A DNA stretch of 64,000 nucleotides from positions 53,712 through 117,711 of the forward strand of contig JBAVQU010000015.1 in the NCBI GenBank assembly GCA_049694315.1, given 5' to 3'. Positions 6,015 through 36,291 of the stretch are shown here, piece after piece; positions within the stretch are counted from its first letter, which is position 1, and every line of letters starts with the position of its first letter. A program made the translations under genes and the position numbers. The notes under the pieces are model-generated. The model searched no databases. It saw only the letters and a program-made list of their open reading frames with translations, and was not told where the DNA came from. Origin of the DNA: Candidatus Zixiibacteriota bacterium. GTDB taxonomy: Bacteria; Zixibacteria; MSB-5A5; SM1-73.

Positions 6015-6080
6015 TTTCGCCCGCCTTATTATCGGGATAATTTTCTGTTGAAGTCGGACAAGACGAATTCGCTCTTTTGA

Positions 6081-6140
6081 CCTCACCCTCTATTCCCCCT
6101 CTCCATCTTATGGAGAGGGGGACAAAAGGGGGAGAGGTAG
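6081..6140. repeat. Intergenic nested-palindrome repeat, copy A
   Basis: CCTCACCC...TTCCCCCTCTCCAT-ctt-ATGGAGAGGGGGA...GGGGGAGAGG. Confidence 0.7.
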
Positions 6141-6151
6141 AGAAAGTCGAA

Positions 6152-6703
6152 ATGCTGACAGACATCCAAAGAAAATATGGCACGCCGCGTGCACTGAACA
6201 TGTCTTTTTCCATGAACCAAGAGGAATTCGACATGCTCAAAGATAGCATGAAGGACGGTCGCAATTCCGACGTCACCCTGTTCATTCTCAAGGATAATAA
6301 GGTTATCCTAATCGCCAAGCCCTGGTATCCCCAAGGGCTTTATCGTGCCCCCTCAGGCGGGATCAAACCGGATGAAGACACAGAAGCCACCGCAAAAAGG
6401 GAAGCGTATGAAGAGACCGGAACCAGAATCGAACTGGTCAGATATATATTGAGAATTCAAGTCACTTTTACGTGTGGACAGGAGAGCATAAACTGGACCA
6501 GCCACGTGTTCACCGCACGCCATCTTTCCGGCGAGCTGCGACCTATCGACACGAGAGAGATAAAAGAAGCGACTTGGCTGAGCCTGGAGGAGCTTTCTTC
6601 TATGAAGTCAAAGCTTCTGGGGCAAAATTCTGGTGGGCTTGCCTATCGCGCCGCACTAACCGAGGCGGCGATAAATGAGATTCTATCCGCACAAAAGAAG
6701 TAG
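6152..6703 (+). CDS. NUDIX hydrolase
   Basis: Nudix box GGIKPDEDTEATAKREAYEETG. The track ORF N-terminus overlaps the repeat element, and an ATG at 6152 follows a GGAGAGG RBS. Confidence 0.7.
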   Translation: MLTDIQRKYGTPRALNMSFSMNQEEFDMLKDSMKDGRNSDVTLFILKDNKVILIAKPWYPQGLYRAPSGGIKPDEDTEATAKREAYEETGTRIELVRYILRIQVTFTCGQESINWTSHVFTARHLSGELRPIDTREIKEATWLSLEELSSMKSKLLGQNSGGLAYRAALTEAAINEILSAQKK

Positions 6704-6752: not shown

Positions 6753-8825
6753 TCACAAATCCTCTTTTCTGTCCTGATCTTCAGCTTCATCTATTTCTTG
6801 TGTTTCTTCTGTTGGTTCTTCCGGCTGATAATCTGCAAGCTCTCCCCGGGCAATCATCTTTTCGTAGTCCAACGGATGTCTTTTCATGTAATCTTCTTCG
6901 GTCATGGTCCCGGTGAGGAAGGAAAAGTTGACCGGATAGGTTTCGGGATCGACGATCATGTAAAAGAAGTGCCAGACCACGATGGCCAAAGTTGCCAGGC
7001 AGGCTTCGTAAAAATGAATTGCCTTGCAAACGTCCAAAAGCCATTTGGGCATAAACCCCAGAAAGAACGTCTCAAACCACAAAGGTATGCCGGTCAGCAC
7101 CATCACCACACCACCCCATACTAAAGCCCAGTATTCCGCCTTTTCGGCGTAGTTATATCGATCAAAAAGCGGCTCCCGAGGAGAGAAGCCTAAGCTCCAA
7201 ATCATGTTCTGAATGACGTTTCTTATGTCTGAGAGAACAGGGAATTTGGCTTTCATCTCCCCCCGGCCACGTCTGGTGAAAACGGAATGCCCGAAAGAGA
7301 ATACGAAAAGCCCGATGAACACTACTGCGGCCACCCTATGAGCCACCGCTCGCGCCGCAAAGGCAGCGGGTGAATGAGTCATCCATGAAGACCACCACGA
7401 GTCGGGGTATCTGAAGGCGAACCCGGTAATGGCCAAAGTGGTGAAGGAGACCATCAGAAGGAAATGCCATATGACCTCCACGATGGTGAATCTTACGACC
7501 GTTCCTCCCTTTGCTTGTCTGTATCTATCCCTTGCGTGCTTTATCATAAGCACTGCGTTATGGGCCAGCATCCCGCCGATCACTATGACGATGAGGCTCA
7601 AGTAAAGCCTTCTGATCCAGTATACCCCTATGTCTGTCTTGCGCGAAGGGATGATGTGGATCGACCCTTTGGCGAAGTTCGGTCCTGCCCCATGATGACA
7701 CTTTCCGCAAGTGTGTGGCAGATTGGCTTTGTTTATGGAAGAGAGTGGGTCCTCTTGAGGTCTGATGCTGTGGCTGGTGTGGCAACTGGCGCAGCTGGCG
7801 GTAGTGGTATCTCCCGCCATGCTTCCCACTCCGTGATAGCTATCCAAGTAAGTGGTGAACCTCTGAGAAACCAGTCCATATTTCTCTATGATCCTCTCCT
7901 GAGAGTGGCAGCGGGTGCAAGTTATTTTGGAAAGGTTCGCTGTAAAGGTGGAAGAAGTTTTGTCCCTCGAGGACTTAATGGCGTGTTCGGTATGGCAATC
8001 GGTGCAGACCGGTGCATCCGTCACTCCCCTCTTAACTCCGCTTCCGTGCGCATCCTGGGCATATTCCTCTTGCTCACTGGGATGGCACTGACCACAGGTG
8101 GCAGATATGTTAGTACGATAGGTTAAGGAACTGGGATCGGAAGCAGGCTTAATATCATGGCTTTTGTGGCAATCCGAGCAGACCGCCACACCGGGATTTC
8201 CGTCTTTCAACGACTTGCCGTGCACGCTTTCCATATAGGCTTGATATGGGGCGGGAAGCGGGATTTGGTATTTGCTTAGGCTTATGGGAGCGTCATGGCA
8301 CTTGGCGCACATCTTGGGCTGATTGGCTCGATAGGTGTCCGCTTCCGGGTCATCCGCCTTGTGGATGCTATGATAGGAATGACAATCGTTGCAGGCAGGA
8401 GCACGGGCTACCCCTTCGCGTTTTCTCTGACCATGAATACCCTCTTGGTAAAGTTTCGTCGCATCCTGGTGACAACTGCCGCAGTCCACAGGTACAGGTG
8501 GGGTGGCGTGTGGCTCAGGCAATACTCCTTGATGACAGCCAGTGCAACCTAAATCTTTGTGAATCGATTTGACAAAAACGGATTGATCCACAAAGAGTGA
8601 TTTTTCCTTTCCAGTCGAATCAGTCTTAGAAAGACCCTTATCTCCGTGGCACACCAAACATTCTTCGTCAGTAGCAGCGTACCCCCCATTTACCCAAAAG
8701 AGAGCCAAGGACAAAATCAGAAGCAGTACCGACAGACTCAGGCGATATTGTTTCATCAAACGATTTTTCTGTCTGGGCAACTCGATTCCCTCAGGTTTGT
8801 TAGGTGAAGATAAGCACACTTCCAC
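6753..8825 (-). CDS. Multiheme c-type cytochrome (11 CXXCH) fused to a HydC/FdnI-family diheme cytochrome b membrane domain (CbcL-like)
   Basis: Signal/TM anchor, then 11 CXXCH motifs (CLVCH, CTGCH, CGSCH, CNDCH, CAKCH, CSDCH, CGQCH, CTDCH, CTRCH, CASCH, CGKCH). The C-terminal ~300 aa carry 4-5 TM helices with conserved His (WHFLLM, FGHSVF, IHFYEA, VWHFFYM), typical of b-type hydrogenase/formate dehydrogenase cytochrome subunits. Confidence 0.75.
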   Translation of the reverse strand: MEVCLSSPNKPEGIELPRQKNRLMKQYRLSLSVLLLILSLALFWVNGGYAATDEECLVCHGDKGLSKTDSTGKEKSLFVDQSVFVKSIHKDLGCTGCHQGVLPEPHATPPVPVDCGSCHQDATKLYQEGIHGQRKREGVARAPACNDCHSYHSIHKADDPEADTYRANQPKMCAKCHDAPISLSKYQIPLPAPYQAYMESVHGKSLKDGNPGVAVCSDCHKSHDIKPASDPSSLTYRTNISATCGQCHPSEQEEYAQDAHGSGVKRGVTDAPVCTDCHTEHAIKSSRDKTSSTFTANLSKITCTRCHSQERIIEKYGLVSQRFTTYLDSYHGVGSMAGDTTTASCASCHTSHSIRPQEDPLSSINKANLPHTCGKCHHGAGPNFAKGSIHIIPSRKTDIGVYWIRRLYLSLIVIVIGGMLAHNAVLMIKHARDRYRQAKGGTVVRFTIVEVIWHFLLMVSFTTLAITGFAFRYPDSWWSSWMTHSPAAFAARAVAHRVAAVVFIGLFVFSFGHSVFTRRGRGEMKAKFPVLSDIRNVIQNMIWSLGFSPREPLFDRYNYAEKAEYWALVWGGVVMVLTGIPLWFETFFLGFMPKWLLDVCKAIHFYEACLATLAIVVWHFFYMIVDPETYPVNFSFLTGTMTEEDYMKRHPLDYEKMIARGELADYQPEEPTEETQEIDEAEDQDRKEDL

Positions 8826-11083: not shown

Positions 11084-13099
11084 TTAGTCTGTCATCTCCA
11101 GTTTTATTCCGGCTAAGACTTTTCTGCCGGGGTTGGGGTAATCCAAATCCGAGATCGAGTTTCCAAACTGGGTGGGAGTGTTATCATCAAAAAGATTATT
11201 CACTTTCAAGAAGAGGGTTAGCCTTTTGATCTTCTGATTAAGATTGACGTCAAGGTTAGCGAAAGACCTGATCTTCTTGGTCACATACCTTATTTCCGGA
11301 TAGAAGGAATAATCCGGATAATAGTTCAGTTTTTCACTGCGGCAATTGAATGCCAGTTGAGCGGAAAACGATGAGAAGATTTTTAGATTCAAATTCACAT
11401 TGAGGCTATTTTCAGGCAGAAAACGTGCCTTTTTTTTCAACTCTTCAAATCTCGTCTCCCCGGAAAAGAAGTCGTCATAGACCAATTCCTTTTTAGTCTC
11501 CTCTCCCCTGTTATAGGAGTAGTTCACCGCAAAATCGAAACGCTTGGAGATTCTGTAGTCCAATTCCAATTCTGCTCCCGAGGAGCTGAACCGATCCAGA
11601 TTGAAAGGCTGCCATAATCCGTTTTGACCTAATGGCTGCCAGGAGATCATGTCTTTCACCTCTCGATAAAAGAAGAAGACCTGAGAAGAGATTTTCCTGC
11701 CGGCAAAAACCAAACCACTTTCAAGACTTCCCCCCTTTTCCGGTCTTAAGTCCTTATTCCCCCCTTCAGGCCAGTAAAGGTCGTTGAAGGTCGGGGCGCG
11801 ATAGGCTTTTCCGTAGTTCAGTTTTAGCGAAAAACCATCGCTCAGATGATAGATCCAGCCTAAGTTCGGAGAGAGCATTTTTTCGAAATTACTGGGCAGG
11901 TCATATCTGGAGCCAAGCTGAAAGGTGAATTTCCCTAAATTCAATGAGAAATTTCCCCAGAGTCCTAAAGTATTGGAATTCGGATTCCAGGAAAAACTCG
12001 AACTGGTCTGTGAGGTCACATAAGAGGATTTCCTTTGGGCTTCAAGGTGGTCTATCGAGAAATCCAGGCCGAAAGTGATTCGGCTTCTCTCCTTGAGCAC
12101 AGAGGAATACTGCATGAATCCGCCCAGGCTCTTGGTCAGGTAAGAGTACACTTCGTCTACTTCTCCGGAGAAATCGTATCTGGTCGAATAGTCCATCCTC
12201 CTTCGGTCAAAGAAAAGTCGGGTTAAGACCTCCCGGGATTTTTCCGCAGATTGGAGATGGAAAGCCAAATCTAGGGAATAGTTCTTATCCTTCTGATGGT
12301 CGAAGAGGGAAGAGACCGAAGAGCTGCCAAACTTCGGGATATTCAAAGGGTCAGGCGCAGGTCCGGGTAGACCTAAATCATCCTTCTGTGTCGACAAGTA
12401 GAGTTTCAGATCGGCGTTGGAAGTGAAGCGATAAAGAAGGGTCGAATGAGAGAATAAGGCTGAATAATCCGAGTTTTCTCTGTTGCCGCCAGTCTGCTTT
12501 CTTTCCAGACCCGAGTCAAACCTGAGATTCTTGATTCCTGAGGCAAAATCCAGAGTGGAGATTACAGTTTTCTCATCCCCATATAGAATGGAAGAGGAGA
12601 GGCTGTTTCTCAAGGGAAGAGTGGGAATCAGGTTGACCACCCCACCCAAGGCATTGGCTCCGTACAGAGAGGAAAGAGGACCACGGACGATCTCCACTTT
12701 TTCCAGATTACCCAACGAGAAGTCGCTTAAGTTGAAAATGCCGTTGGTGAGGTAGTTCAACCTTCTCCCGTCTAACAAGAACAACACCTGTGAAGAGGAG
12801 CAACCTCTCAGACTGAGAGTCTGCACCTGGCCTAAGGAGCCGGAAGAGTTCATTTCTGCGCAGGAGAAATTCCGTAGAGCCTCACCCAAAGAGAGAGAAT
12901 TGAAGCTCTTTAGCTTGGAGTAAGCCAGTAGAGTGGAATGCGTGGGAATATTCTTAAGATGCTCCGGATACCGGGTAGCAGTCACAAAGACGGGCTCACC
13001 CAAATAGATTCTTCCGGTGGTGGAGAGTTCAGATGTTTCCTCCGCCCGTGCTCCAATCGCGAGAAGCAAACCGAGACACAGAACAAAGACCTGTCTCAT
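11084..13099 (-). CDS. TonB-dependent outer-membrane receptor
   Basis: Signal peptide, plug-domain motifs (VEIVRGPLSSLYGANALGGVVNLI) and a long beta-barrel region, 671 aa. Confidence 0.8.
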   Translation of the reverse strand: MRQVFVLCLGLLLAIGARAEETSELSTTGRIYLGEPVFVTATRYPEHLKNIPTHSTLLAYSKLKSFNSLSLGEALRNFSCAEMNSSGSLGQVQTLSLRGCSSSQVLFLLDGRRLNYLTNGIFNLSDFSLGNLEKVEIVRGPLSSLYGANALGGVVNLIPTLPLRNSLSSSILYGDEKTVISTLDFASGIKNLRFDSGLERKQTGGNRENSDYSALFSHSTLLYRFTSNADLKLYLSTQKDDLGLPGPAPDPLNIPKFGSSSVSSLFDHQKDKNYSLDLAFHLQSAEKSREVLTRLFFDRRRMDYSTRYDFSGEVDEVYSYLTKSLGGFMQYSSVLKERSRITFGLDFSIDHLEAQRKSSYVTSQTSSSFSWNPNSNTLGLWGNFSLNLGKFTFQLGSRYDLPSNFEKMLSPNLGWIYHLSDGFSLKLNYGKAYRAPTFNDLYWPEGGNKDLRPEKGGSLESGLVFAGRKISSQVFFFYREVKDMISWQPLGQNGLWQPFNLDRFSSSGAELELDYRISKRFDFAVNYSYNRGEETKKELVYDDFFSGETRFEELKKKARFLPENSLNVNLNLKIFSSFSAQLAFNCRSEKLNYYPDYSFYPEIRYVTKKIRSFANLDVNLNQKIKRLTLFLKVNNLFDDNTPTQFGNSISDLDYPNPGRKVLAGIKLEMTD

Positions 13100-13873
13100 T
13101 TCTCACTCCTTAGTTTTAAGGGTTCAAAGACTCAGAAGTTCAAATGCCATAAGAACAATACTGCGCGAAAAAAACAAAACCCAGCTTCACGGCGAAGCTG
13201 GGTGAAATGCTATTTCCCAAAGACCTCTTCCCGCGAAGAGCAATGGAATATGAGTGTTAGGGCAATTCACGAATTGCCCCACCGTTAGACCTAATTCCTA
13301 AATCAAGCCTAACTTACACGAATTCGATTTGATCGGTCTCCTGACTTTATGGCTTCGAACCTACTCGCTTCCCTTCCCGTCCCCCGGTTGGTTATTGGTT
13401 CGTGGTTCATGGTTCGTGGTTAAAAGCTTTCACCACGAACTACGAACTCCGAGCCACCAACCATCCCGCCTTCGGCGGAATAGAACAGTGGTTATTGAAG
13501 CTTTCGTAGCCACTTACAGTAGCGGGGCTGTGGCGGATTTTCACCGCCTTCCCTTTACCCCATTTGGGGCATCAAATCGCTGTTGGTTTTGTCAGAGATC
13601 AAATTCAACTACATTATGTCTGATCCAATATTTGAAGTCAAGAGAAAAACCATTTTCTTCTCAGGTCGTGGCGTCTTTTTCTGTCATCCTGAGGGAATCC
13701 CGCCTTTTGCAGGACCAAAGGTGAAACGTAAACCGTCCCTTCTTGGTCAAGCTGAAGCTTGACACTCCAAAAACCTTTCCTTGTTTACCTCTGAGAGCTC
13801 CTTTTGTAGTTGCCCAATTCATTGGGCGATTTTCCACTCGATAAGCAGACGCTCCCGTCCGGGAATCGAACAA

Positions 13874-15394: not shown

Positions 15395-17923
15395 TCACAC
15401 CACTGCCTTTTCCAACTTCGCTTTGTCCGCTTCCAGCTTGGCTCTTCTTTTTTCTCCTTTGAATTTGAGATCCGCCAGCGCTTTCTTGGTAAACTCTACC
15501 TCCTCTTTTGTGACTCTCTTCCTCATCTCCTCAACTTCTTTCATCACCTTAGCGAACTTCTGTCCTTCTGCCGCGCTGATCCACTCCAGTTGAAGTCTTT
15601 CCGGTCTTATTCCCATCTTCTCTAATTTATCCCACAGCTTCTCTACTCTTTTCACTGTCCAGCGATTCGCATCGATATAATGGCAATCCGCAAAATGACA
15701 GCCGGAAACCAAAACTATGGGAGCTCCCAGCTTGAAAGCATAGAGCACGAATTCCTCATCCACCCTGCCGGAACACATGGTTTTGATGATCCTCTGATTG
15801 GGAGGATACTGCAAACGGGATATTCCAGCCATGTCCCCTCCTGCATAGGAGCACCAGTTGCAGGCAAACACCACCGTCTTATCCTGAGGATTCTCGTCTA
15901 AGATGGCCTCTATCTGAGCGAGGATTTGGCTGTCCTTGAAGTGTCGCATGGTGACCGCGCCAAAAGGACACTCTGCTCCGCAAGTGCCGCATCCGGCACA
16001 CGCGGCTTCGATGATCTCCGCCGGTGTCTTCTTCTCCCGATCCACCAGGATACACTTGTAGGGACAGGCCCGATAACAGATCTCACAGGCAGTGCACATC
16101 TCCTTGTCCACCATTGAGGTTATCGCCTCTACCTTGATTCGATCTGCATTCAGGATGATCTCCGATCGGGCGGCAGCAGCGCCCGCTTGGGTAACGCTGT
16201 CCTTAACGTCCTTGGGGAATTCTGCACAACCCGCGTAGAAAACCCCTTTGGTGGGTGCATCCACCGGCTTTAGCTTGGGATGAGACTCCATGTAAAATCC
16301 ATCCGGGGTGCGAGAGAGGGTCAAAAGCTTCTGGATGGTGCTCCCGTCCAGTCGGGGCAAGACGCCTACGGAGAGCACCAGCATCTCCAATTCATGCTGT
16401 TCCACCTCACCGGTGGTGGTGTTCTCCACGGTGACGATCAGGTTTTTGGTCTTCGGATCCTCCATCACCTCTCCGGGCAAGCCGCGGATGTACTTGACTC
16501 CCTCCTCTTTGCTTCTCCGGTAGAGATCCTCAAACGCTTTCCCGAAGGCCCGGATATCCATGTAGAAAACTTTGATTTCGGTATCAGGATAATGGTCTTT
16601 CAAAAGGACTGAGTCCTTTATGGTGTTCATGCAGCAGATATTGCTGCAATAGCGATTGCCCCTTTTTTCGGACCTGGATCCCACACACTGAATGAACCCA
16701 ATGGTCTTGGGCGTTTTTTGATCAGCCGGACGGATGAAATGCCCCTGTGTGGCACCGCTGGCACAAATCAGGCGCTCAAATTCCATGGAGGTGATCACAT
16801 TCTCGAAGCTCCGATAGCCGTATTCATCCAGCTCCGTGGGATCATAAACATCCATTCCTGTCGCTACAATGATAGCTCCTACCTTCAGATCAATCATCTC
16901 ATCTTGCATGTCGTAGTCGATGCACTTTTTCTCACACACCTCCGAGCATTTGCCACAGGCAATGGGGTTGTTTCCTAGACAGGCATTCATGTCGATCAAA
17001 TAGGCAGAAGGGACCGCTTGAGGAAGCTGCAAGTAAATGGCTTTCCGAGAGGAAAAACCCTGTTGGAAACCATCTGGAACCGCCACCGGGCAGACCTTAG
17101 CGCATTCTCCACAGGAATTACAGTCCTTCTCCCTCACGTAGCGTGCTTTCCTTCTGACCTTCACTTCGAAATTGCCGACATAACCTTTAACCTCTTCCAC
17201 CTCGCTATAAGCCAAGAGCTTTACTCTGGGATGTCGACCGACATCCATCATTTTCGGTCCCAGAATTCATATGCTGCAATCCATGGTGGGATAGGTCTTG
17301 TCCAAAGCCGCCATGATGCCGCCGATGGATGGTTCCTTCTCCACCAGATAGACCTGAATGCCAGCATCCGCTAAGTCTAAAGAGGCTTGAATTCCCGCCA
17401 CTCCCCCACCAACGACTAATGCTGCTTTTGTAACAGGAACCGTCTTTTCGATCTGCGGCTCCAAGTATCTGACCCTGGCTACTCCCACCTTCACCATGTC
17501 CTTGGCCTTTTCTGTAGCACCCTTGCGGTCATGCAAATGTACCCAGCTGCAGTGCTCTCTTAGGTTCACCATCTCCAAGAGGTAGGGATTCACTCCCACG
17601 TCGGCCACACACGCTCGGAAGGTCGGCTCGTGCATACGAGGAGAGCAGGAAGCTACCACCACCCGATTGAGGTTGTGCTCCTTGATATACCGCTTGATCT
17701 CATTCTGTCCCGGATCAGCGCAGGTGTATTTGTTCAGAACCGACACCGCCACATCCGGCAGGGTCTCGGCGTACTTACGCACCGCCTCGCAGTCCAGCGA
17801 TCCGGCGATGTTCAAGCCGCATTCGCAGACAAACACCCCGATTCTTAGATCATTTTCCTTTCCTGGTGTTTTCTTGTCAGCCACCACATTCACCTCCTGG
17901 GCTTTGATACAAGAGCAAGTCAA
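15395..17923 (-). CDS. hdrA: Heterodisulfide reductase subunit A fused to a C-terminal MvhD domain. Selenoprotein with an in-frame TGA at 17267-17269.
   Basis: The track ORFs 17267..17923 and 15395..17251 share one frame and are separated only by the TGA. Read-through gives ...DKTYPTMDCSI-U-ILGPKMMDVGRHPRV..., the HdrA C-S-x-C/U motif. FAD motif [16 protein letters not shown]. Ferredoxin-type Cys clusters. The C-terminus [14 protein letters not shown]...SGCHFADCHY is an MvhD domain. Confidence 0.8.
17226..17263 (-). promoter_or_regulatory. Candidate bacterial SECIS hairpin downstream of the hdrA UGA
   Basis: mRNA CUGGGACCGAAAAUGAUGGAUGUCGGUCGACAUCCCAG, with apical hairpin GGAUGUC-GGUC-GACAUCC starting about 23 nt after the UGA. 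Confidence 0.55.
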
Positions 17924-18049
17924 ATTCAGAGATTCATTCAGTTCTCCGATCCAAACTTCCGAGGATAAATTGGAGTGTTCACCTTCAGGTGAACCAAGTC
18001 AAGCTGAAGCTTGACACTCCGGTAAATTCCTCTTGTGTATCTTCTAATG

Positions 18050-18481
18050 CTATGGCTCGAAAATTCTCCTTCCACCTTCCCAGCTATCCCACCATTCAAT
18101 TCTCTTTGGGTTAATCTTCAATAAGCAGAACTCCTCAGATTCGGGACCTTTCGGAAAGTGCTGGGAAATATCATAAGGAGCTAGCCCCCAGACTCTTTTC
18201 TTATGTTCCAAGTCTTTCGTAATCTCAGCTTCGCCGACTATGATGGCGGATTTGTCGCCAGACGGATGCTGGACAAAACTCAGGCAGATTTTGGGATTCT
18301 GTTTTATCTGTTTCACCTTCCTGGAGCTGGCGGAAGTCGCCACCCACACAGACATGTCATCTTCGACAATCGGAGAAACCGGGCGGACTTGCGGCTGATC
18401 GCCATCCGAAGTTGCCAAGAATGCAAAGAGACAACACTCTTTCATTATGTCGACCATTTTCTGTTTGTCAGAGGAACTCAT
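18050..18481 (-). CDS. Pyridoxamine 5'-phosphate oxidase-like FMN-binding protein
   Basis: 143 aa. The pattern (LATSDGDQPQVRPVS...VWVATSASSRKVKQIKQNPKICLSF) fits the PNPOx-like split-barrel family. Confidence 0.55.
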   Translation of the reverse strand: MSSSDKQKMVDIMKECCLFAFLATSDGDQPQVRPVSPIVEDDMSVWVATSASSRKVKQIKQNPKICLSFVQHPSGDKSAIIVGEAEITKDLEHKKRVWGLAPYDISQHFPKGPESEEFCLLKINPKRIEWWDSWEGGRRIFEP

Positions 18482-18575
18482 TCCTCACTCCTTCATTATA
18501 TTCATTATGAAAGTACCCGATTGCAACTTCTTGCGGTGACGGAGAAGTCATCCATTGTCACCAAACACTTCATGT

Positions 18576-18704
18576 CATCGCCCCAGCAAACAACGTGCTC
18601 AAATCGACAATTCTTAGTCTTAACTCCTCTGAATAGCCCTCGGCGTTCTGGGTGCAGGAGAAATGAATCTGGCATTTTGGACAGGCGGTGACCCAAACCA
18701 CTGC
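18576..18704. repeat. Direct repeat copy 1 (pseudo 3' end of the hdrD-like gene)
   Basis: About 129 bp at roughly 94% identity to 19276-19404, which are the last ~43 codons of the CDS at 19270..20400. Confidence 0.7.
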
Positions 18705-18724
18705 AACCTTTGACTTAATTGACG

Positions 18725-18934
18725 TTATTTGTGTGCAGTTGTAGATTGGTAATGAGCCACAAGCTCTCGAACTTTAGAGATAAGTTTGTTGGGAACCTCA
18801 ATGAAGGTTTGTCCCTTCTCCTCGAAAGCCGCTTCGTCTTCTGCCACCGCCTCTTCTTCAGTTTGTTGCTCGTAATGAGCTATCACCCGTCGAACGCGCT
18901 CTTCATCCCAACCTGGTGGAAATTTGCTCTTCAT
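18725..18934 (-). CDS. BrnA-like antitoxin (type II TA)
   Basis: 69 aa, acidic, downstream of and overlapping the DUF497-like toxin gene by 4 nt. That arrangement is typical of BrnT/BrnA. Confidence 0.45.
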   Translation of the reverse strand: MKSKFPPGWDEERVRRVIAHYEQQTEEEAVAEDEAAFEEKGQTFIEVPNKLISKVRELVAHYQSTTAHK

Positions 18935-19218
18935 CTCCTGAATCTCCTTCGTCTACGTCTTCTATACGCCATCAATGGTTTCCCTTTTAATTCGTACGCC
19001 GTTATGACGAATACGCTATCCGGCTCTGGATCTGGAACATAAACAACCCTAAGATATCGACCTGATTTAGTCTGCCCAATTGCTACACGTGAACCCTCAC
19101 GACCGGCCCGATCCTCACCCGACTTCATTAGGACTTCCTCAACTTCATTTTCTATGACTCCATGTTTATAAAAATGAGGCTGTCGTGTTTCTGGATCAAT
19201 ATAATAGCGTATTTGCAT
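18931..19218 (-). CDS. BrnT-like toxin (DUF497 family)
   Basis: 95 aa: MQIRYYIDPETRQPHFYKHGV..EVEEVL...RVAIGQTKSGRYLRVVYVPDPEPDSVFVITAYELKG, the DUF497 pattern. Confidence 0.5.
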   Translation of the reverse strand: MQIRYYIDPETRQPHFYKHGVIENEVEEVLMKSGEDRAGREGSRVAIGQTKSGRYLRVVYVPDPEPDSVFVITAYELKGKPLMAYRRRRRRRFRR

Positions 19219-19269
19219 AATCTTCCGTGATCAAGACGTCCTCGAAAACAACCTCAGTCATGCCCTTAT

Positions 19270-20400
19270 TTATGTTATCGCCCCGGCAAACAACGTGCTC
19301 AAGTCGACGATTCTTAGTTTTAAGTCCTCTGAATAGCCCTCGGCGTTCTGGGTGCAGGAGAAATGAATCTGGCATTTTGGACAGGCGGTGACCAAAACCT
19401 CTGCTTGGGTATTCTTTGCCTCCTTCAGCCGATTCGTCTGAATCATCTTGGAATAGACATCACAGTTCACCCAGGAAGAGGTTCCGCAGCAGGTGGCATT
19501 CTTTCTGTTTCTGGGCATCTCCACCAGCTCCGCCCCGGAAGCCTTGATCACTTCTCTGGGTGCGTCAAACACGCCACTGAACCGCCCCAACCTACAAGGG
19601 TCTTGATACGTAACCTTGGTATCCAGTTTCTTCAGCTTGGTCCTGTCTTTTGGGATCTTCTCGGAGATCAGCTCCGATATGTGAAGGACTTCATAGTCTT
19701 GCTTTCCGAACATCTCCGGATAGTCGAATTTCAGGCTGACCAGGCATTCGGGACACGAGGTGACGATCTTTTTCGCCCCGGATTCTTTTATCAGCTTCAG
19801 ATTGTGTTCTGCCAGCTTTTTGAAGTTCTCCACGTCCCCCATCCACAGAAGATCATGCCCGCAACACCTTTCGTTGGCCAACACCTGTGGCTGGATGCCC
19901 AAGAAGTTCAGAATCTTCAGAGTCGACTTTCCCGATTCGATGGAGTTTGCTTTGATGTCCGTGAAGAAAACGTCGAAATAAGGGAGGCATCCGACAAAAT
20001 AAAGATATTCGGACTTCTCTGACGTCTTCAGATCCGGGGTGATCCATCCTAATCTATTTTGTTTCAGCTCAGGTGCGGTCATGATTTTCATCAATGACTG
20101 CAGGGCCCCGCCATGAGAGCACTTGGCGTCTTGCCCGTTGTTACTGGCTTCAGCTCTGACTAACCGGGTGAACTGGATGTAATCAATGTCGGAAGGGCAT
20201 TTCTGCTGGCACTGCATGCAGGTCAAGCAGGTCCAGACCGTATTATCTTTCAGCAGATTTTCATTGGAGCCGGTCACCGCCTTGGTCATAAGTCTTCGCG
20301 GAGAATAGCCCTTATTAACTCTGGAGATAGGGCAGATGGCAGTACATTTGCCGCAGTCTAAACAGAGATAAGCTTTGGTGTTCTTGATGGATTCTTTCAT
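19270..20400 (-). CDS. HdrD/GlcF-like iron-sulfur oxidoreductase (two 4Fe-4S motifs plus two CCG domains)
   Basis: CLDCGKCTAICP and CLTCMQCQQKCP, then CCGHD...C and ...CCGTSSW cysteine-rich CCG-type motifs. Confidence 0.7.
   Translation of the reverse strand: MKESIKNTKAYLCLDCGKCTAICPISRVNKGYSPRRLMTKAVTGSNENLLKDNTVWTCLTCMQCQQKCPSDIDYIQFTRLVRAEASNNGQDAKCSHGGALQSLMKIMTAPELKQNRLGWITPDLKTSEKSEYLYFVGCLPYFDVFFTDIKANSIESGKSTLKILNFLGIQPQVLANERCCGHDLLWMGDVENFKKLAEHNLKLIKESGAKKIVTSCPECLVSLKFDYPEMFGKQDYEVLHISELISEKIPKDRTKLKKLDTKVTYQDPCRLGRFSGVFDAPREVIKASGAELVEMPRNRKNATCCGTSSWVNCDVYSKMIQTNRLKEAKNTQAEVLVTACPKCQIHFSCTQNAEGYSEDLKLRIVDLSTLFAGAIT
19276..19404. repeat. Direct repeat copy 2 (authentic 3' end of the hdrD-like gene)
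   Basis: Partner of 18576-18704. The two copies bracket the 571-bp segment that carries the BrnT/BrnA pair. Confidence 0.7.
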
Positions 20401-20508
20401 ATCATGTTAGCCTTTGCAAGTTCCAGAAGCGAAATTCAAAAATGTCGTCTGGGTCATCCCGGAAATAGTCTGCCCTTCTTTTCTTTTCGAATTTTGAATT
20501 GTACTTTT

Positions 20509-20952
20509 TCATTTTGCATTTTGAATTTTGAATTGTCTCAACGGGCTTGGTCCCACTTTCTTCACATCCTCTATGAATTGCGTGATCACCTGGGCAAATC
20601 TTTGACCTTCAGCGGCTGAAAACCACTCCAATCTCAACCGCTCCTTTTCTAAACCCAGAAGCTCGAAGAGCTTTTTGGTGATTTCGAACTGCTCCGCAGC
20701 TCGATGATTGCCAAAGGTGTAATGGCAATCGCCGAAATGTCACCCCGACCACATCACGCCGTCTGCACCTTTTTCAAATGCTCGGAATACGTGGGCTGGG
20801 CTGATCCTGCCGGAACACATCACGCGGATGAGCCTTACATTTGGTGGATATTGCATCCGGCCCACCCCGGCAGTATCTGCTCCTGCGTACGAGCACCAGT
20901 TGCAAGCGAAGACGACGACTCGGGGATCAAAATCATTCGATTGTTTTGTCAT
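20509..20952 (-). CDS. mvhD: Methyl-viologen-reducing hydrogenase delta subunit homologue (MvhD). Selenoprotein with an in-frame TGA at 20740-20742.
   Basis: Read-through of the track ORF 20740..20952 gives [17 protein letters not shown]...[18 protein letters not shown]...[13 protein letters not shown]. This aligns residue for residue with the MvhD domain of the hdrA fusion in this window (VLVSG-C-HFADCHY), with the UGA at the Cys position. Stop TGA at 20509-20511. Confidence 0.7.
20706..20730 (-). promoter_or_regulatory. Candidate SECIS hairpin downstream of the mvhD UGA
   Basis: mRNA GAUUGCCA-uuacaccuu-UGGCAAUC, an 8-bp stem starting about 11 nt after the UGA. Confidence 0.45.
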
Positions 20953-21066
20953 ATTACTATTTCCTTAATGGACATAATCTGTGTGATACATCGGCATTAG
21001 GAAATGTCGATGCCATAAAAAGCTTCAGCAATTTCCATTGTCGAAACATCGGGAATACTCGCTTCA

Positions 21067-22050
21067 TTATAAGAAGGCAACCGTTTTATTCAAACCTAAA
21101 TAGTTAAGTTCGTCTTGTGTAAAGGAATCCAAATTACTGAAGACTAATTCAACGAATTCATCACCATCTACAAAAGATATCTTCTTACACTCTTCCCTAT
21201 AGTATTTCTCAGCTAACTTCTTTGCGTCATCCGAAATACTACCCGACGTTACGATAATCCCCGTATCCCCTTCATCCATTGAATTTGCTAATTGCTCCAC
21301 TACCCAACTATCAAGGGCTCCATGCTCGGGATAAAAATGCTTAACTTGTATTCTAACAACAAGGTTCCCAGGTAGAGTTGTTTTTAGATCAGTGTCTCCT
21401 TGCTGGCTGTTTGTAGTTGCCAACCTTGTGAGACCAGGAAAGTACCTATTGAGAACAGTTCTTACGCTTTCCTCAAACCTGGATGAGTTGACGCCCGACA
21501 GTATCCCCTTTTGTAACTTGTCAAGATACTCTATTTTCAGATCTAGATAGTTTTGACAGCTGAACAAGTGCTTTTGGGTTTTGACAATATCGCTTATATC
21601 TTGATGATAAGTGGCAAAAAGCGTTTGTTGTCCTTTCAAAGAATCAAAAACTCGTCCAGTTAAGACCGACCGGGGAATGGCGCGTTTTTCATTCAGCCAT
21701 TCAACTTCTCGTTGATGTGGATAACCATCCGTATCATTGTCTTTGGAATTATCGTATCGATAATCGCTTTGTACATATCCAACAAATACAACTGGCCCAT
21801 CAGGAACCACAACATAATCTTCAATTTGCATTTCATTTACAAAGCGGTTAATAATGCCAACAGCTTGCCCTAAGGATTGATTAGAAGAATACGAATAAAA
21901 CGTTTGCAAAGCCTGTTTGATTTGCTCTCTGTTTTTTCCTACTAGATTCCCTATGTAGGGCCAACCAATTGCCACCAAGTTCCCCACCAAGAATTCTTTC
22001 ATTCTATATTTATCGTGTGGATAAGATCGTAATACCCAAGCATTACTCAT
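21067..22050 (-). CDS. Mrr-like restriction endonuclease-domain protein (type IV restriction-like) with an uncharacterised N-terminal domain
   Basis: The C-terminal region GDTDLKTT...VVRIQVKHF...DTGIIVTSGSISDDAKKLAE matches the Mrr catalytic-domain pattern (D...(Q/E)xK, IvTts.fs..A). The gene sits in a clearly AT-rich island. Confidence 0.5.
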   Translation of the reverse strand: MSNAWVLRSYPHDKYRMKEFLVGNLVAIGWPYIGNLVGKNREQIKQALQTFYSYSSNQSLGQAVGIINRFVNEMQIEDYVVVPDGPVVFVGYVQSDYRYDNSKDNDTDGYPHQREVEWLNEKRAIPRSVLTGRVFDSLKGQQTLFATYHQDISDIVKTQKHLFSCQNYLDLKIEYLDKLQKGILSGVNSSRFEESVRTVLNRYFPGLTRLATTNSQQGDTDLKTTLPGNLVVRIQVKHFYPEHGALDSWVVEQLANSMDEGDTGIIVTSGSISDDAKKLAEKYYREECKKISFVDGDEFVELVFSNLDSFTQDELNYLGLNKTVAFL

Positions 22051-22129
22051 TCCTTACCCTCGCTTCTAAGATAGAATTAAGGTGTAATTGATTAGCATGA
22101 CAATCTATCCCATGTTCGCTATTTGTTTA

Positions 22130-25100
22130 TTATTTATCCCAAACCAACAGCGTATCTATCATCACATCTATCTGCTCATCTGTGAAGTGGCGAGCTGTTA
22201 TTGCACCGGTGGGGCAGTATGCCGCGCAGGTGCCGCAGCCTTTGCACAAAGCTTCGTTAATCTCACAGACCAAAACGCCTTCTCCCTTATCTACCAATTG
22301 TGGCGCGTTAAATTGGCATATCTTCACACATATTCCGCAGGCTCGACACAGTTCTCTATTTACCACTTGACAGACCACCGGCTCAAGCTCGATGTGATCT
22401 CTGGACGTAAGGATAGCTGCTTTGCCCGCTGCTCCCTGGGCGGAGAACAGACTATCTGATATTCCCTTGGGGGAATGTGCACACCCACAGATGAATATCC
22501 CCGCGGTATTCGTCTCCACCGGTCCCAACTTGGAGTGCCTCTCCAAGAAAAATCCATCCAATCCCCTTGGAACCTTGAGAAGACTCTGAAGCTCGGCAAA
22601 ATCTTTCTCTTTCGGCACCATGCCCACGGAGAGTATCACCGCATCCACTGGCAGTTCCGTCTCGGCTTTGGAATGAGGCTGAAATAGCTTGATCTTGGTC
22701 GCTTTTCTGTCTCCAATTATCTCCGGCGGATGCTTCTCATCGTATCTTAAGAACAAAACCCCTGCACCTCGCGCCTCCCGATATGCCTCTTCCGCACCCT
22801 TGTCGAAAGTCCTGATGTCCCTGCAGTACACTATAACGTTGATTTCCTTTTTCTGAAGCTCGGTAGCTTGTTTGATGGCTACCTGACAGCAATATCGGGA
22901 GCAGTATTCGTTTCCGCCTTTCTCCCTTGATCCCACGCACTGGATGAAAGCAACGTTCTCCGGCTTCTGGTTGTTGATCTTCAACTCCTCCTGGTTCTCT
23001 GTCATCAGCTTTTCCAATTCCATGTTAGTGAGAACATTGGGGAATTGTCCATGGCCGAATCTGCCTTGGGGATCAAAAAGATCCGAGCCGACCGCCAGGA
23101 TGATGGCTCCGAACTTCAGCACCCCATTCTTGGTCTTCTTGCCCTTGGCGGATGCGGGCATCTCTAAAGTCACCTCAAAATTGCCGACAAACCCGCTTAC
23201 TTCCTTCACCTTAGAGGAAGTGAGCACCTTGACTTTTCTCTCCTTCAGCTCTTCTAATTTCTGTTTGATCAGCTGCTTACCCGTCAGCTCACTCCCCAAA
23301 AGACTACCCAGATCCTTTACCCTTCCACCCAACTCCTTGTCCTTATCGATCAAAGTCACTTTCTCGCCTTTGAGCGCCAAATCTAAGGCCGCCTGAATTC
23401 CCGCTATGCCGCCGCCGATTATCAAGATCTCTGGATTCATGGGGACCTGCCTTCTCTCCAAAGGCTCCAGATGATAAGCTCTGGCAACCGCCATGCGCAA
23501 AAGGTCTTTTGCCTTTGTAGTTGCCGCCTCTGGCTCCTGGGAGTGCACCCAGGAGCACTGGTCCCGGATGTTAGCCATCTCAAAGAGATATGGATTGAGG
23601 CCGGCTCTCTTGCAGGTTTCCTGAAAGATGGGCTCGTGCGTGCGGGGAGTGCAGGCCGCCACCACCACCCGGTTCAAGTTTTGTTCCTTGATCTTTTCCG
23701 CCATGAATCTCTGAGTTCCATCCGAGCACATAAAAAGGTCGCGACAGACATAGGTCACTCCGGGAAGCGACTTGGCATATTCCTCCACCTCTGCCACGTT
23801 CACCACTCCAGCGATGTTGATCCCGCAATGGCAGACGAATACTCCGATCCTCGGGTCTCCGCTTACGTCCAGAGGTTCGACTTTGATCGGCTCTTTCTTC
23901 AATTGCTGACCTTTCAGATGCTCTGAAACCTTCAACGCGGCGGCGGAACCCAAGGCTACTGAGTCGGTGATGTCTTTAAGTCCGGCAGCGCTGCCACAAA
24001 GATAAATCCCGTCTTTAGTCGACTCCATAAAGGAGGTGGAATCTCCCTGCTTGAAGAAGCCGGTTTTGTCCAGCTCGATTCCCAAAATCTGCGCCAGTTT
24101 GGCCGTCCCCTCAGCCGGGACTCCGGCAGACGACAGAATCACGATATCCGCTCTCACTTTCTCCACGGCCTTGGTATCCATGTTCTCAATGAAGAGCAAG
24201 AGGTCCTTGGTTTTTGGATCCTCTTCGATCTTGGCCGGCTTTCCCCTGTAAAATATGACATTCGGATCCTGCTGTGCCCGCAGGTACAACTCCTCGTATC
24301 CTTTGCCGAAAGCTCTTATGTCGTTGTAAAAGATGTAGATCTTCTCGATGTCCGGTTGATGCACTTTAGCTAAAAGCGAATTCTTGACGGTGTTCATGCA
24401 GCAGAAGTACGAGCAATAAGGATATCCTCTGTCGCCTACTGATCTGGAGCCGACGCACTGGACAAAAGCCAGAGTCTTGGGGGGTTTCATGTCGGCAGGA
24501 CGGACCAGGTGACCACCTGAAGGCCCGGAGGCATTCAGAATTCTTTCGAATTCGAGTCCGGTCAGAACGTTCTCGTAACGAGCGTAGCCAAAATTGGTCA
24601 GGCTTCGTGGATCGTACTCGTCGAAACCGGTGGCAACTACGATGGCACCGACGTCAACCGTCTCCTCCCTAGGCGGCATGTCGAAATCAATGCACTTGAG
24701 TTTGCAGGCCCGGTAGCAGTTTTCGCACACCAGGATGGTCTTGTTAAGGCAGGCTTCACGATCAATCACATAGGTTCGGGGGGATGCTTGAGGGAAAGGA
24801 GTATAGATGGCTTTTCTGGCTCCCATTCCTAAGTCGAAAGAGTTGGGAGCAATCACCGGACAAGCCTTGGCGCAATCACCGCATCCCACGCAGGCGTTCT
24901 CGTCCACAAAGCGGGGGTTTCGTCTAACCGTGGCCTTGAAATTCCCCTTTTCCCCTTCCACCCGGACCACTTCAGAATGGCTTAAAAGCTTTACATTGGG
25001 ATGTCGACCGACATCCAGCATGCGGGGACCCAGAATTCAGATGGCGCAATCCATGCTGGGAAAGGTTTTGTCGATCTGCGCCATCCTACCCCCCAGGGTG

Positions 25101-25207
25101 GAAGCCCTCTCCACCAAATAAACCTGAAAGTCGGCGTCGGCTAAATCGAGGGCCGCCTGAATTCCAGCCACCCCTCCTCCGATGACCAATGCACCTTTCT
25201 TTGTCAA
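22130..25207 (-). CDS. hdrA: Tandem-domain HdrA homologue (two HdrA-like modules). Selenoprotein with an in-frame TGA at 25037-25039.
   Basis: Extending the 963-aa track ORF upstream in frame gives (V/L)[74 protein letters not shown].... An AGGAGG RBS and a GTG/TTG start lie at about 25205-25210. There is a second FAD/ferredoxin module ([18 protein letters not shown]...) and a C-terminal ferredoxin motif. Confidence 0.75.
24999..25016 (-). promoter_or_regulatory. Candidate SECIS hairpin downstream of the second hdrA UGA
   Basis: The same 18 nt, GGAUGUCGGUCGACAUCC, as in the first hdrA, about 21 nt after the UGA. Confidence 0.55.
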
Positions 25208-25455: not shown

Positions 25456-26007
25456 CTAAGCGGTCTGCTTCAACAAACTCTTCCCGTATTGATAACCTTT
25501 GTCAAAGGCCTTTATATTGACGTCGATCAACTTTTCGCTAAAAGAATCCTGAATCGCCTTGCGCGCGGACTGCTCTGTGGTCAACTTGGTGACCGCGGTG
25601 AAGAAGCCAAACATCACGATGTTGGCCGCGATTCTTGCTCCCATCTCCTCGGCCAAGCGGGCGGATGGTATGGAAAAGAATTTGGCTCTCTTCTTCACCT
25701 GGTCCGGCTTGACCAAATCCTCATCGATGATTAAAGTTCCATCCTCTGTTATGTTGCTCGCATGTTTGGAATATCCTTCTTGCGACATGGCCACTACGAT
25801 ATGCGGTGTGGTCACATAGGGATACAGAACTCTATCGTCGGATATCACTACCTGGGAACTGCAGGCACTTCCTCTTGCCTCCGGTCCGAAGCTCTGGGTC
25901 ATGGTGGCGTGTTTGCCGTCGTATATGGACGCGGCCTTCCCCAAAAGATATCCGAAACGGATCACCCCCTGACCGCCGAATCCGGTGATCCTTATCTCTG
26001 TCAGCAT
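25456..26007 (-). CDS. 2-oxoacid:ferredoxin oxidoreductase, gamma subunit
   Basis: MLTEIRITGFGGQGVIRFGYLLGKAA..., typical of the Por/Vor/Kor gamma subunit. Confidence 0.8.
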   Translation of the reverse strand: MLTEIRITGFGGQGVIRFGYLLGKAASIYDGKHATMTQSFGPEARGSACSSQVVISDDRVLYPYVTTPHIVVAMSQEGYSKHASNITEDGTLIIDEDLVKPDQVKKRAKFFSIPSARLAEEMGARIAANIVMFGFFTAVTKLTTEQSARKAIQDSFSEKLIDVNIKAFDKGYQYGKSLLKQTA

Positions 26008-26888
26008 TGGGGACCTCCGTGTGCAATGAATTTCTCTTTAAGCTTGCCCTTCATCCAGTCGTTATGGGCATCCAAAAAGGTCGGTCTTTCCCGATCGATA
26101 AACTTGCCCACGATGATCTTTTTCTGAAACTCAATGTCCAGCTCCCGAGTGTCGGCCCCATGTTTGATCACGCTGTTGTCATGATAGAACTTCATCAGAT
26201 CCAGACCGGTGCCCAGCCTATTTCTCCTGGCGTAAATGGTGGAGCAGGGAGCGATGATCTCGATGAAAGAAAATCCCTTCTTGTTCATTGCCTCCGCCAT
26301 GGAGCGAGCCAGCCTTCGCACGTGCAGGCAGGTCCAGCGAGCCACGTACACCGCACCACAGGATGCGGCCAGATGAGGTAGATTGAAAGGCTGGTCGAAG
26401 TTCCCGTAGGGGGAAGTGGAAGTGTTGGCGCTGATCGGAGTAGTAGCTGCCACCTGTCCCCCGGTCATGGCGTATACGAAGTTATTGATGCATAATACTA
26501 CTAGGTCCATGTTTCTGCGCGCGGCGTGGATAAGATGATTGCCGCCGATTCCCACGATGTCACCGTCTCCGCTGAAAACCACCACTTTCAGCTCTGGATT
26601 GGCCAGCTTTAGCCCGGTGGCAAACGGTATTGCCCGTCCATGCGTGGAGTGAAAAGAATCCAGGTTGATGTAACCGGCGATTCTGCCTGAACAGCCAATT
26701 CCCGAGACCACACACACTTTTTCCAGGGGGGTCTCCACCTTCTTCAAAGCTTCGGCAAAGGAGGTGAGCGCCGTTCCTATTCCGCAGGTGGAACACCAGA
26801 TATGAGGAATCCGATCCATCCGGAGAATGTCCTTCATAGGATGTTCCATGAGCTCAGCCGGTTCGACTAACGTGTCCGTTGGCTTCAT
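26001..26888 (-). CDS. 2-oxoacid:ferredoxin oxidoreductase, beta subunit (TPP-binding)
   Basis: CSTCGIGT...GDGDIVGIGGNHLIHAARRNMD, a TPP-binding pattern. Confidence 0.8.
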   Translation of the reverse strand: MKPTDTLVEPAELMEHPMKDILRMDRIPHIWCSTCGIGTALTSFAEALKKVETPLEKVCVVSGIGCSGRIAGYINLDSFHSTHGRAIPFATGLKLANPELKVVVFSGDGDIVGIGGNHLIHAARRNMDLVVLCINNFVYAMTGGQVAATTPISANTSTSPYGNFDQPFNLPHLAASCGAVYVARWTCLHVRRLARSMAEAMNKKGFSFIEIIAPCSTIYARRNRLGTGLDLMKFYHDNSVIKHGADTRELDIEFQKKIIVGKFIDRERPTFLDAHNDWMKGKLKEKFIAHGGPQC

Positions 26889-28042
26889 TTCACTGCCTCC
26901 TTGATAGCTTTGTATATGTCTTCGGGATCATGTACCCACCCTCCTCCGTGCGGAACCAGAAGCACCTTGGCCTTGCCTCCCGCGCACCGCTCGACCTCAT
27001 AGAACATCTGCCCGTAATTCATCTCCACCACCACAAAGGCTTTCACCTTGGCAGCCAGTTGTCTTATCTTTTGCTCTGGGAAGGGCCAAACGATGATCGG
27101 TCGGAAAAGCCCCACCCTTATCCCCTCTTTCCGGGCCTTCTGAATGGCAGGTATGGAAACACGGGAACTTATCCCATAGGAGAAAATCACCACCTCCGCA
27201 TCCTGCATCTGCACTTCCTCTACGTCTACCAATTCGTCGGCATGCAGTCGGATCTTTTCCACCAACCGTCGGACCAGCTTCTCCTGGGCTTCCCAACTCA
27301 TGACCGGGTAGCCTTTCTGGTCATGGGTCAGGCCGGTAATGTGAATCTTGTATCCATCTCCGGCTTTGACCATCTCCGGCACTAAATCCGGACCAGGTTT
27401 GAATGGAAGGTACTCACTCGGAGGAAGCTTGGTATATCGACGGGGGTAAAGCTCGATCTCCTCGGCTTTGGGGATCACCACTTTTTCGGTCATGTGTCCC
27501 ACGCATTCATCCGCCATTACCAATACCGGTACTCTGTATTTTTCCGCTAGATTAAAAGCTTTTATCGTAACCTCGAAGCACTCCTGGGGAGAGTTGGGAC
27601 AGAGCGCAATGATCTCATAATCGCCGTGCGATCCCCAACGCGCCTGCATCATGTCGGCCTGCCCGGGAAGAGTGGGAAGCCCGGTGGAGGGTCCGCCTCG
27701 TTGGACGTTGATCACCACGCAGGGAGCCTCCATCATCGCGGCCAAGCCGATATTCTCCATCATCAAGGAAAACCCCGGGCCGGAGGTGACGGTCATCGCC
27801 TTAACTCCGCCCCAGGCCGCACCCACGACCGCGGCCATGGATGCCATCTCGTCCTCCATCTGGATGAAAATGCCTCCCACGTGGGGGAACCGCTCGGCTA
27901 TCCGCTCGGCTACCTCAGTAGATGGAGTGATGGGGTATCCGGCCAAAAAACGACAGCCTGCGGCAAGGGCCCCCTCCGAGCAGGCATGGTCGCCGTCCAG
28001 ATAGTGTTCTCCGGTCAAAACGCCTTTTGGATCAGCTTTCAA
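26885..28042 (-). CDS. 2-oxoacid:ferredoxin oxidoreductase, alpha subunit
   Basis: 385-aa pattern of the Por/Kor alpha subunit, overlapping its neighbours by 4 nt. Confidence 0.8.
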   Translation of the reverse strand: MKADPKGVLTGEHYLDGDHACSEGALAAGCRFLAGYPITPSTEVAERIAERFPHVGGIFIQMEDEMASMAAVVGAAWGGVKAMTVTSGPGFSLMMENIGLAAMMEAPCVVINVQRGGPSTGLPTLPGQADMMQARWGSHGDYEIIALCPNSPQECFEVTIKAFNLAEKYRVPVLVMADECVGHMTEKVVIPKAEEIELYPRRYTKLPPSEYLPFKPGPDLVPEMVKAGDGYKIHITGLTHDQKGYPVMSWEAQEKLVRRLVEKIRLHADELVDVEEVQMQDAEVVIFSYGISSRVSIPAIQKARKEGIRVGLFRPIIVWPFPEQKIRQLAAKVKAFVVVEMNYGQMFYEVERCAGGKAKVLLVPHGGGWVHDPEDIYKAIKEAVK

Positions 28043-35329: not shown

Positions 35330-35555
35330 TGAAGAATGGCGGATAAAGGATGACGAATGAAGAGGCGGGATGAATTGCCGCCCCCTTGGAGGTTGTGTAA
35401 CGGTCGCACGGACGTGCCCACCTCGGCATTTATGCGACCTACCTGTTCGATAAATCGAACCGTCACAAATAAGCTCGATGAATCGAGCAACTACGGATTC
35501 CCCCTCTCCATTTTATGGAGAGGGGGATCAAGGGGGTGAAGTCTACGGTTTTATC
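35330..35555. repeat. Composite repeat copy (GATGACGAATGA motif plus nested palindrome)
   Basis: GGATGACGAATGAAGAGG ... TTCCCCCTCTCCAT-ttt-ATGGAGAGGGGGA...GGGGGTGAAG. Confidence 0.6.
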
Positions 35556-36267: not shown

Positions 36268-36291
36268 CTCTCAGTGTCCGTCTCCGTCCGA

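Follow-up and report, generated by a model that had tools for sequence, protein, structure and literature searches.

Three genes of a putative electron-transfer cluster on contig JBAVQU010000015.1, from a Zixibacteria-like bacterium, are each interrupted by one in-frame TGA, which raises the question of whether these codons terminate translation or are read through as an amino acid. The genes belong to the HdrA and MvhD families and lie within the 64-kb stretch of DNA analysed here (the window), to which all positions refer. An earlier note on this DNA had proposed that the codons specify selenocysteine (Sec). Judging from comparative sequence evidence, we consider it very probable that the three TGAs are Sec codons of a soluble HdrA/MvhD-type electron-transfer complex containing flavin and iron-sulfur centers. 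Several lines of evidence agree with this proposal, among them conservation of the TGA, alternation of Sec and Cys codons at the site, the use of TGA as an ordinary stop elsewhere in the window, constrained hairpins resembling the bacterial Sec insertion sequence (SECIS), and the alignment of the HdrA site to Cys197 of a solved structure.

As the earlier note had reported, the three TGAs lie on the minus strand and are flanked on both sides by long stop-free stretches in the same frame. The first gene, an hdrA-mvhD fusion (15395–17887, minus strand), is read through one UGA at 17267–17269 (motif C-S-I-U), which joins stretches of 243 and 623 codons. It probably begins with the GTG at 17887 or 17884, preceded by AGGAGG, and read-through yields TMDCSI-U-ILGPKMMDVGRHP within an HdrA of about 830 amino acids (aa) that carries Pfam FlpD, Fer4 and FAD domains and ends in a C-terminal MvhD domain. 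The second gene, a free mvhD (20509–20952, minus strand), has its UGA at 20740–20742 between stretches of 74 and 76 codons; its product is an MvhD of 147 aa containing GVMWSG-U-HFGDCHY. The third is a tandem hdrA (22130–25207, minus strand) that begins probably with the TTG at 25207, with AGGAGG upstream, and encodes about 1026 aa in two HdrA-like modules. Its UGA, in the first module at 25037–25039 (motif C-A-I-U), separates 59 from 968 codons, Pfam domains are recognized in its product, and full-length homologues occur in bacteria and archaea. The motifs listed in the earlier note were indeed restored by read-through, although it had swapped the second and third relative to the gene coordinates. 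The window contains about 150 pairs of same-frame stretches with a single intervening TGA, of which only these three look coding on both sides, and all three have support at the protein level. The three-TGA arrangement is not a chance pattern.

The read-through products were next assigned to families. With U treated as C, HdrA-MvhD matched NF040770 ('HdrA2') with 1188.6 bits, above the cut-off of 1100, and the free MvhD matched the FlpD/MvhD domain PF02662 with 178.9 bits (gathering score 22.3; E=4e-53) and MvhD/VhuD chains in the PDB with E of about 1e-50. As the latter protein scored 131 bits against the VhuD equivalog NF045873, under the cut-off of 215, it is an MvhD-family protein and not a VhuD orthologue. 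In HdrA-MvhD, the U aligned to Cys197 in the FAD (flavin adenine dinucleotide) domain of Methanothermococcus HdrA (5ODC chain A, E=2e-62). The equivalent residue is Sec197 in the Hdr-Vhu-Fwd structure of M. maripaludis, where it was observed in a bond with a Cys and has been proposed, in Methanococcus, to act as a selenylsulfide relay close to the bifurcating FAD (PMC13518236). In the window, both HdrA genes keep the C-x-x-U motif, which in the tandem HdrA is absent from the second module. In MvhD, the U falls in the motif G-C-H-x-G-D-C-H-Y, opposite residue 67 of 5ODC chain D in the alignment, and the Sec residue would lie at or near the [2Fe-2S] site. Consistent with the earlier note, the MvhD domain fused to HdrA reads VLVSG-C-HFADCHY, with Cys at the aligned position.

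To follow the codon across relatives, the MvhD sequence was used as the query in a scan with one genome per species, which returned 49 loci. The closest 11 (79%–89% identity) came from metagenome-assembled genomes (MAGs) of Candidatus Zixiibacteriota, some of which carry the label 'uncultured Ignavibacteria'. TGA was found at the site in 11 of 11 Zixibacteria orthologues of mvhD, and in all eight orthologues each of the tandem hdrA and of hdrA-mvhD. More distant mvhD homologues had either TGA (Desulfobacterales, Syntrophobacteraceae, Desulfotomaculum, Bacillota) or TGC/TGT (archaea, Chloroflexota and others), and the more distant lineages with TGA at the HdrA/MvhD sites include Anaerolineae. 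Over all loci, homologous modules had TGA (28), TGC (19) or TGT (11) at the HdrA site; other codons appeared only where the query had been aligned to the non-homologous second module. The nearest Cys-form MvhD in the protein database was 78% identical and read VMWSG-C-HLGDCHY. Aligning the read-through proteins with their Cys homologues, the check that the earlier note had suggested, gave only TGA, TGC or TGT at the aligned codon of homologous modules, which is the classical signature of a Sec/Cys pair.

If an RNA element overlaps the coding sequence after each TGA, synonymous variation should be suppressed there. Codon entropy was calculated at codons with an invariant amino acid in the Zixibacteria orthologues, and positions +1 to +16 after the TGA were compared with the rest of the gene. 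The entropies were 0.30 versus 0.93 for mvhD (p=9e-5), 0.60 versus 0.93 for the tandem hdrA (p=0.03), and 0.30 versus 0.86 for hdrA-mvhD (p=5e-4). In mvhD, the invariant codons reach codon +18, include two four-fold degenerate Ala codons, and span both of the hairpins described below. Such suppression is independent evidence for a functional RNA structure within the reading frame.

Both HdrA genes carry the same predicted SECIS hairpin, GGAUGUC-GGUC-GACAUCC, at nucleotides (nt) 24–41 counted from the U of the UGA (17229–17246 in hdrA-mvhD and 24999–25016 in the tandem hdrA, both minus strand). It consists of a 7-bp stem and a GGUC loop lying over codons for D-V-G-R-H-P, and in both genes it is conserved and under synonymous constraint. 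Of 27 other Sec-type HdrA sites, 24 had the hairpin with the GGUC loop, namely those of the Zixibacteria orthologues and of Sec-HdrA genes in MAGs of Anaerolineae, Chloroflexota, Syntrophobacteraceae and Desulfobacterales; the 28 Cys-type sites showed no consistent hairpin, and none of them had this one. The three exceptions were Desulfobacterales genes in which the hairpin is shifted by a few nucleotides and has an AGGU loop. When 27 Sec sites were aligned, 96.8% of cells were paired, compared to at most 57% when the partner strand was slid. One helix pair changed from U-A to U-G in four sequences and to C-G in three; in the latter, a Val-to-Ala replacement is compensated by a synonymous CGA-to-CGG change. 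The mean folding energy of nt 9–52 was −12.3 kcal/mol for the 13 Sec sites outside Zixibacteria and −8.2 kcal/mol for the 28 Cys-HdrA sites (Mann-Whitney p=2.6e-5).

The 63 nt downstream of the UGA in mvhD are predicted to form a two-hairpin fold (z=−4.1). Hairpin 1 (20706–20730, minus strand; nt 13–37) has an 8-bp stem, GAUUGCCA/UGGCAAUC, closed by a 9-nt loop, UUACACCUU; its codons are invariant, and the 43-nt segment that holds it has a z-score of −5.8. Hairpin 2 (20684–20704, minus strand; nt 39–59) reads UCGAGCUGC-GGA-GCAGUUCGA, with Ala, Ala, Glu and Phe codons invariant in 12 sequences, and is missing in Cys-containing close relatives. At the place of hairpin 1, distant Sec-MvhD genes have other hairpins, namely AUUACC-UGGRA-GGUAAU in deltaproteobacterial MAGs and GCCACUA-UGU-UAGUGGC in Desulfotomaculum and Bacillota, which the Cys forms lack. 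The deltaproteobacterial genes thus differ in using a single hairpin from the two-hairpin arrangement of the window. Over the whole segment, the minimum free energy (MFE) was the same for Sec-MvhD and Cys-MvhD (means −14.6 and −14.5 kcal/mol), and only the position-specific hairpins differed. One or both of the two adjacent hairpins may be regarded as the candidate SelB site of mvhD.

One metagenomic relative, L052/L053, has a Cys-type mvhD (TGT, 6001–6438 of its locus) in which hairpin 1 (GAUUGCCA...UGGCAAU) is kept and hairpin 2 is lost, and the HdrA-MvhD gene on the same contig retains both the UGA and the GGUC hairpin. This mvhD may have changed from Sec to Cys recently, its SECIS now being in decay.

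In the established bacterial mechanism, SelB carrying Sec-tRNA(Sec) binds an mRNA stem-loop just 3ʹ of the UGA and delivers Sec there, so that termination is avoided. Applied to the window, the element bound would be the GGAUGUC-GGUC-GACAUCC stem-loop in both HdrA genes and the hairpin at nt 13–37, the one at nt 39–59, or both, in mvhD. In HdrA, the Sec residue of the C-x-x-U motif would then sit beside the bifurcating FAD, at the position equivalent by alignment to Cys197/Sec197. The HdrA hairpin resembles the SECIS of E. coli fdhF in lying within the reading frame directly 3ʹ of the UGA and in having a G-C-rich stem and the same apical loop, GGUC. It differs in that the loop starts at nt 31 (nt 22 in fdhF) and the stem lacks the bulged U; SelB binding is proposed by analogy. 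In the fdhF loop, G23 and U24 have a role in SelB binding. The fdhF sequence used in this comparison was verified against 5419 E. coli genomes, where it matched fdhF at 100%. A search of the window with Rfam at gathering thresholds detected no SECIS family and only a cobalamin riboswitch.

Several observations weigh against Sec insertion or against the elements assigned to it. No selA, selB or selD was found among the Pfam-scanned open reading frames (ORFs) of at least 120 aa (nearly all of them) in the window and 12 related Zixibacteria loci, and tRNA scans of the same sequences found no tRNA-Sec gene (selC). The folding contrast between Sec- and Cys-HdrA sites takes no account of phylogeny. 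Covariation in the HdrA hairpin is weak, its score being reached by 125 of 500 shuffles, because the helix is nearly invariant. The MFE fold of hdrA-mvhD contains a window-specific alternative pairing that competes with the conserved hairpin, and the overall z-score of the tandem hdrA segment, −0.8, is unremarkable. In mvhD, hairpin 1 stands at the usual distance but has a loop without G and also occurs in one Cys relative (L052/L053), while hairpin 2, with its GGA loop starting 44 nt after the UGA, is farther away than usual; the distance in the bSECISearch model is 16–37 nt.

The 18-nt HdrA hairpin is identical or nearly so across three phyla, being shared by the window with loci from Anaerolineae/Chloroflexota (L013, L039, L041, L044, L045) and Desulfobacterota (L019, L021, L026, L030), and the corresponding proteins have only 38%–69% identity to the hdrA-mvhD product of the window. 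This suggests either a very strong dual constraint, on protein and RNA, or lateral transfer of Sec-HdrA together with its SECIS. A more ambitious account would hold that Zixibacteria are a previously unreported Sec-using phylum, that the mvhD element is non-canonical and bipartite (a hairpin with a G-less 9-nt loop at normal distance and, 44 nt from the UGA, a second one with a GGA loop), and that the 18-nt HdrA SECIS common to Zixibacteria, Anaerolineae and Desulfobacterota was shared through lateral spread of Sec-HdrA. We regard this combination as unlikely in its entirety. If it is true, the bipartite element implies a SelB-mRNA geometry unlike that of the fdhF model. A variant in which UGA is read as Cys is even less likely.

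In that variant, the UGAs are recoded through SelB and SECIS, but Cys, or a mixture of Sec and Cys, is inserted by a Cys-charged tRNA-Sec-like tRNA or, under selenium scarcity, by Cys-tRNA(Sec). tRNA-Sec-like tRNAs with Cys identity occur in some anaerobic bacteria. The UGA, the hairpin and the aligned Cys fit this scheme as well as they fit Sec, and the sel genes that would discriminate between the two were not seen in the window or the 12 related loci. However, Cys insertion is rare compared with true Sec use, and these families, hairpin included, are also found in lineages for which a complete Sec machinery is documented (PMC2702500). Moreover, a single change from TGA to TGY (Y, C or T) would give Cys directly, and yet the costly UGA and SECIS are kept in at least 11 MAGs, which argues that Sec itself is selected. 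We consider Cys insertion very improbable.

It is less credible still that the TGAs are true stops, with the pieces translated separately or the genes being pseudogenes. Standard ORF and gene callers do give fragments, and an ATG lies five codons past the TGA in both HdrA genes. Termination, however, would truncate HdrA within its FAD domain, halfway through a motif that solved structures show as uninterrupted, and would truncate MvhD within its cysteine motif; the codon aligns exactly with Cys. All orthologues keep both the TGA and the frame, and the sequence on either side is under purifying selection (mean amino-acid identity to orthologues of 0.90–0.98 upstream and 0.84–0.86 downstream of the TGAs). 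Past its TGA, mvhD offers no start codon that could be used. Split genes and pseudogenes were rejected on these grounds, given that independent assemblies share the TGA and the frame and that the protein is conserved on both sides.

Least of all do we credit that the TGAs are errors of sequencing or assembly, or that TGA has been reassigned throughout the genome to Trp or Gly (genetic code 4 or 25), and both explanations are rejected. One public gene call of a close relative does read the site as W, apparently under genetic code 4. The identical TGA in at least 11 independent assemblies, however, excludes read errors. TGA ends 14 of the 35 Pfam-supported genes in the window (TAG 11, TAA 10) and is the most frequent true stop there, so that the code is not reassigned, and homologues have Cys at the site, never Trp or Gly.

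With Sec as the preferred assignment, the genes can be compared with known selenoproteins. The earlier note had stated that Sec-HdrA and Sec-MvhD/VhuD were already known, and the literature bears this out (PMC2702500, PMC13188914). Desulfobacterium autotrophicum HRM2 has Sec in hdrA1, hdrA2, hdrL1, hdrL3 and four mvhD genes, together with selA, selB, selC and selD (PMC2702500). A 2026 review lists the HdrA and MvhD families as selenoproteins with a CxxU motif and describes operons containing both (PMC13188914). Sec-HdrA and Sec-MvhD/VhuD/FrhD are thus established families of methanococci, Asgard archaea and many anaerobic bacteria, and the present genes place them in a new lineage. No report of selenoproteins in Zixibacteria was found in the searchable literature.

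The window HdrA proteins share with the Sec-HdrA of Methanococcales, sulfate reducers and syntrophs the family, the C-x-x-U motif at the Cys197 position and the co-located mvhD. The GGUC-loop hairpin is the same as in bacterial Sec-HdrA genes from MAGs of Syntrophobacteraceae, Desulfobacterales and Anaerolineae, and it lies inside the coding sequence, as in bacteria, in contrast to archaeal genes, whose SECIS is in the 3ʹ untranslated region. Compared with known Sec-HdrA, one window gene is a tandem two-module form with CxxU in its first module only, the cluster lacks an HdrB/HdrC pair and a coenzyme M/coenzyme B (CoM/CoB) context, and the host is Zixibacteria-like. The free MvhD has the same PF02662 domain as the Sec-MvhD/VhuD/FrhD proteins of methanococci, Asgard archaea and Deltaproteobacteria (e.g., mvhD1/2/3/5 of D. 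autotrophicum), and its UGA occupies the same codon as in distant bacterial Sec-MvhD, in place of the conserved Cys of G-C-H-x-G-D-C-H-Y. Unlike archaeal VhuD, which has two Sec residues (PMC13188914), it has one, the C-N-W-C site remaining Cys. No genes for hydrogenase large or small subunits lie near mvhD in the window.

The finding is correct but ordinary, since it concerns known selenoprotein families in a new lineage. It adds Zixibacteria to the lineages using Sec in HdrA and MvhD and implies selenium dependence of the lineage. Its main value lies in annotation, because standard gene calling splits these three genes. The earlier note had predicted such truncated annotations, and both split and mistranslated genes occur in public gene calls of relatives: their HdrA-MvhD is divided at the TGA into 200/203 aa and 610/592 aa, and the MvhD of one relative has W in place of the TGA. 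The note expected six fragments in the window, but five are likelier, as mvhD lacks, downstream of its TGA, a start codon that would open an ORF of at least 40 aa. The subunits that are called as split or truncated likely belong to a flavin-based electron-bifurcating module of an uncultured sediment phylum.

The neighboring genes give some indication of what this module does. An HdrD/GlpC-like subunit (19270–20400, minus strand), a Cys form without in-frame TGA, combines an HdrC-type domain for two [4Fe-4S] clusters with two CCG domains (Pfam Fer4_8 and CCG); every NCBIfam match to it was under the cut-off. Just upstream of the tandem hdrA, at 25456–28042 (minus strand), are genes for a 2-oxoacid:ferredoxin oxidoreductase, with the alpha subunit at 26885–28042 (NF006412, 580.6 bits, cut-off 411) and the beta (26001–26888) and gamma (25456–26007) subunits, whose matches were below the cut-offs. 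Both loci are syntenic in close metagenomic relatives, where the order is 2-oxoacid:ferredoxin oxidoreductase alpha/beta/gamma, large HdrA, MvhD, HdrD-like and HdrA-MvhD. This context suggests ferredoxin-linked electron bifurcation or confurcation rather than reduction of CoM-S-S-CoB, and the module probably connects the ferredoxin-linked metabolism of 2-oxoacids with an acceptor, either a thiol/disulfide or another. Because there is neither an HdrB/HdrC pair nor a CoM/CoB context, the substrate is probably not the methanogen heterodisulfide. The name HdrA denotes the protein family here and not CoB-CoM heterodisulfide reductase activity; the only such subunit next to it is the HdrD/GlpC-like fusion.

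Additional genes are interspersed in the cluster. A Mrr_cat restriction-endonuclease-like gene (21067–22050, minus strand) lies between the tandem hdrA and mvhD, and a DUF4258 toxin-like ORF (18931–19218, minus strand) and a PNPOx/F420-type oxidoreductase-like gene (18050–18481, minus strand) lie between the hdrD-like gene and hdrA-mvhD. The Mrr_cat, DUF4258 and PNPOx/F420-type genes are missing in the syntenic relatives L052/L053, and the distance between the three Sec codons differs by 1–3 kb among Zixibacteria MAGs. The intergenic positions in the hdr cluster look like insertion hotspots.

Elsewhere in the window, the cobalamin riboswitch (Rfam RF00174, 85 bits; 13314–13591, minus strand) is located upstream of a gene for a TonB-dependent receptor (11084–13099, minus strand), presumably forming a B12 uptake system. 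Near the Hdr cluster are also a gene for a multihaem cytochrome c of 690 aa that carries a fused membrane domain of the cytochrome b561 type (6753–8825, minus strand) and three genes for a succinate dehydrogenase/fumarate reductase, with flavoprotein, Fe-S and cytochrome b subunits (35551–38794, minus strand). The TonB-dependent receptor, the multihaem cytochromes and the succinate dehydrogenase/fumarate reductase point to a genome of the Gram-negative anaerobe type. Finally, the region 45112–59017 (minus strand) contains a module repeated three times, in which DUF6754 proteins (47515–48426, 50641–51888 and 54271–55521) are each accompanied by several ORFs of 200–300 aa without a Pfam match, and a PF13941 'MutL' protein of the glutamate-mutase-accessory type is encoded at 57173–59017 (minus strand).

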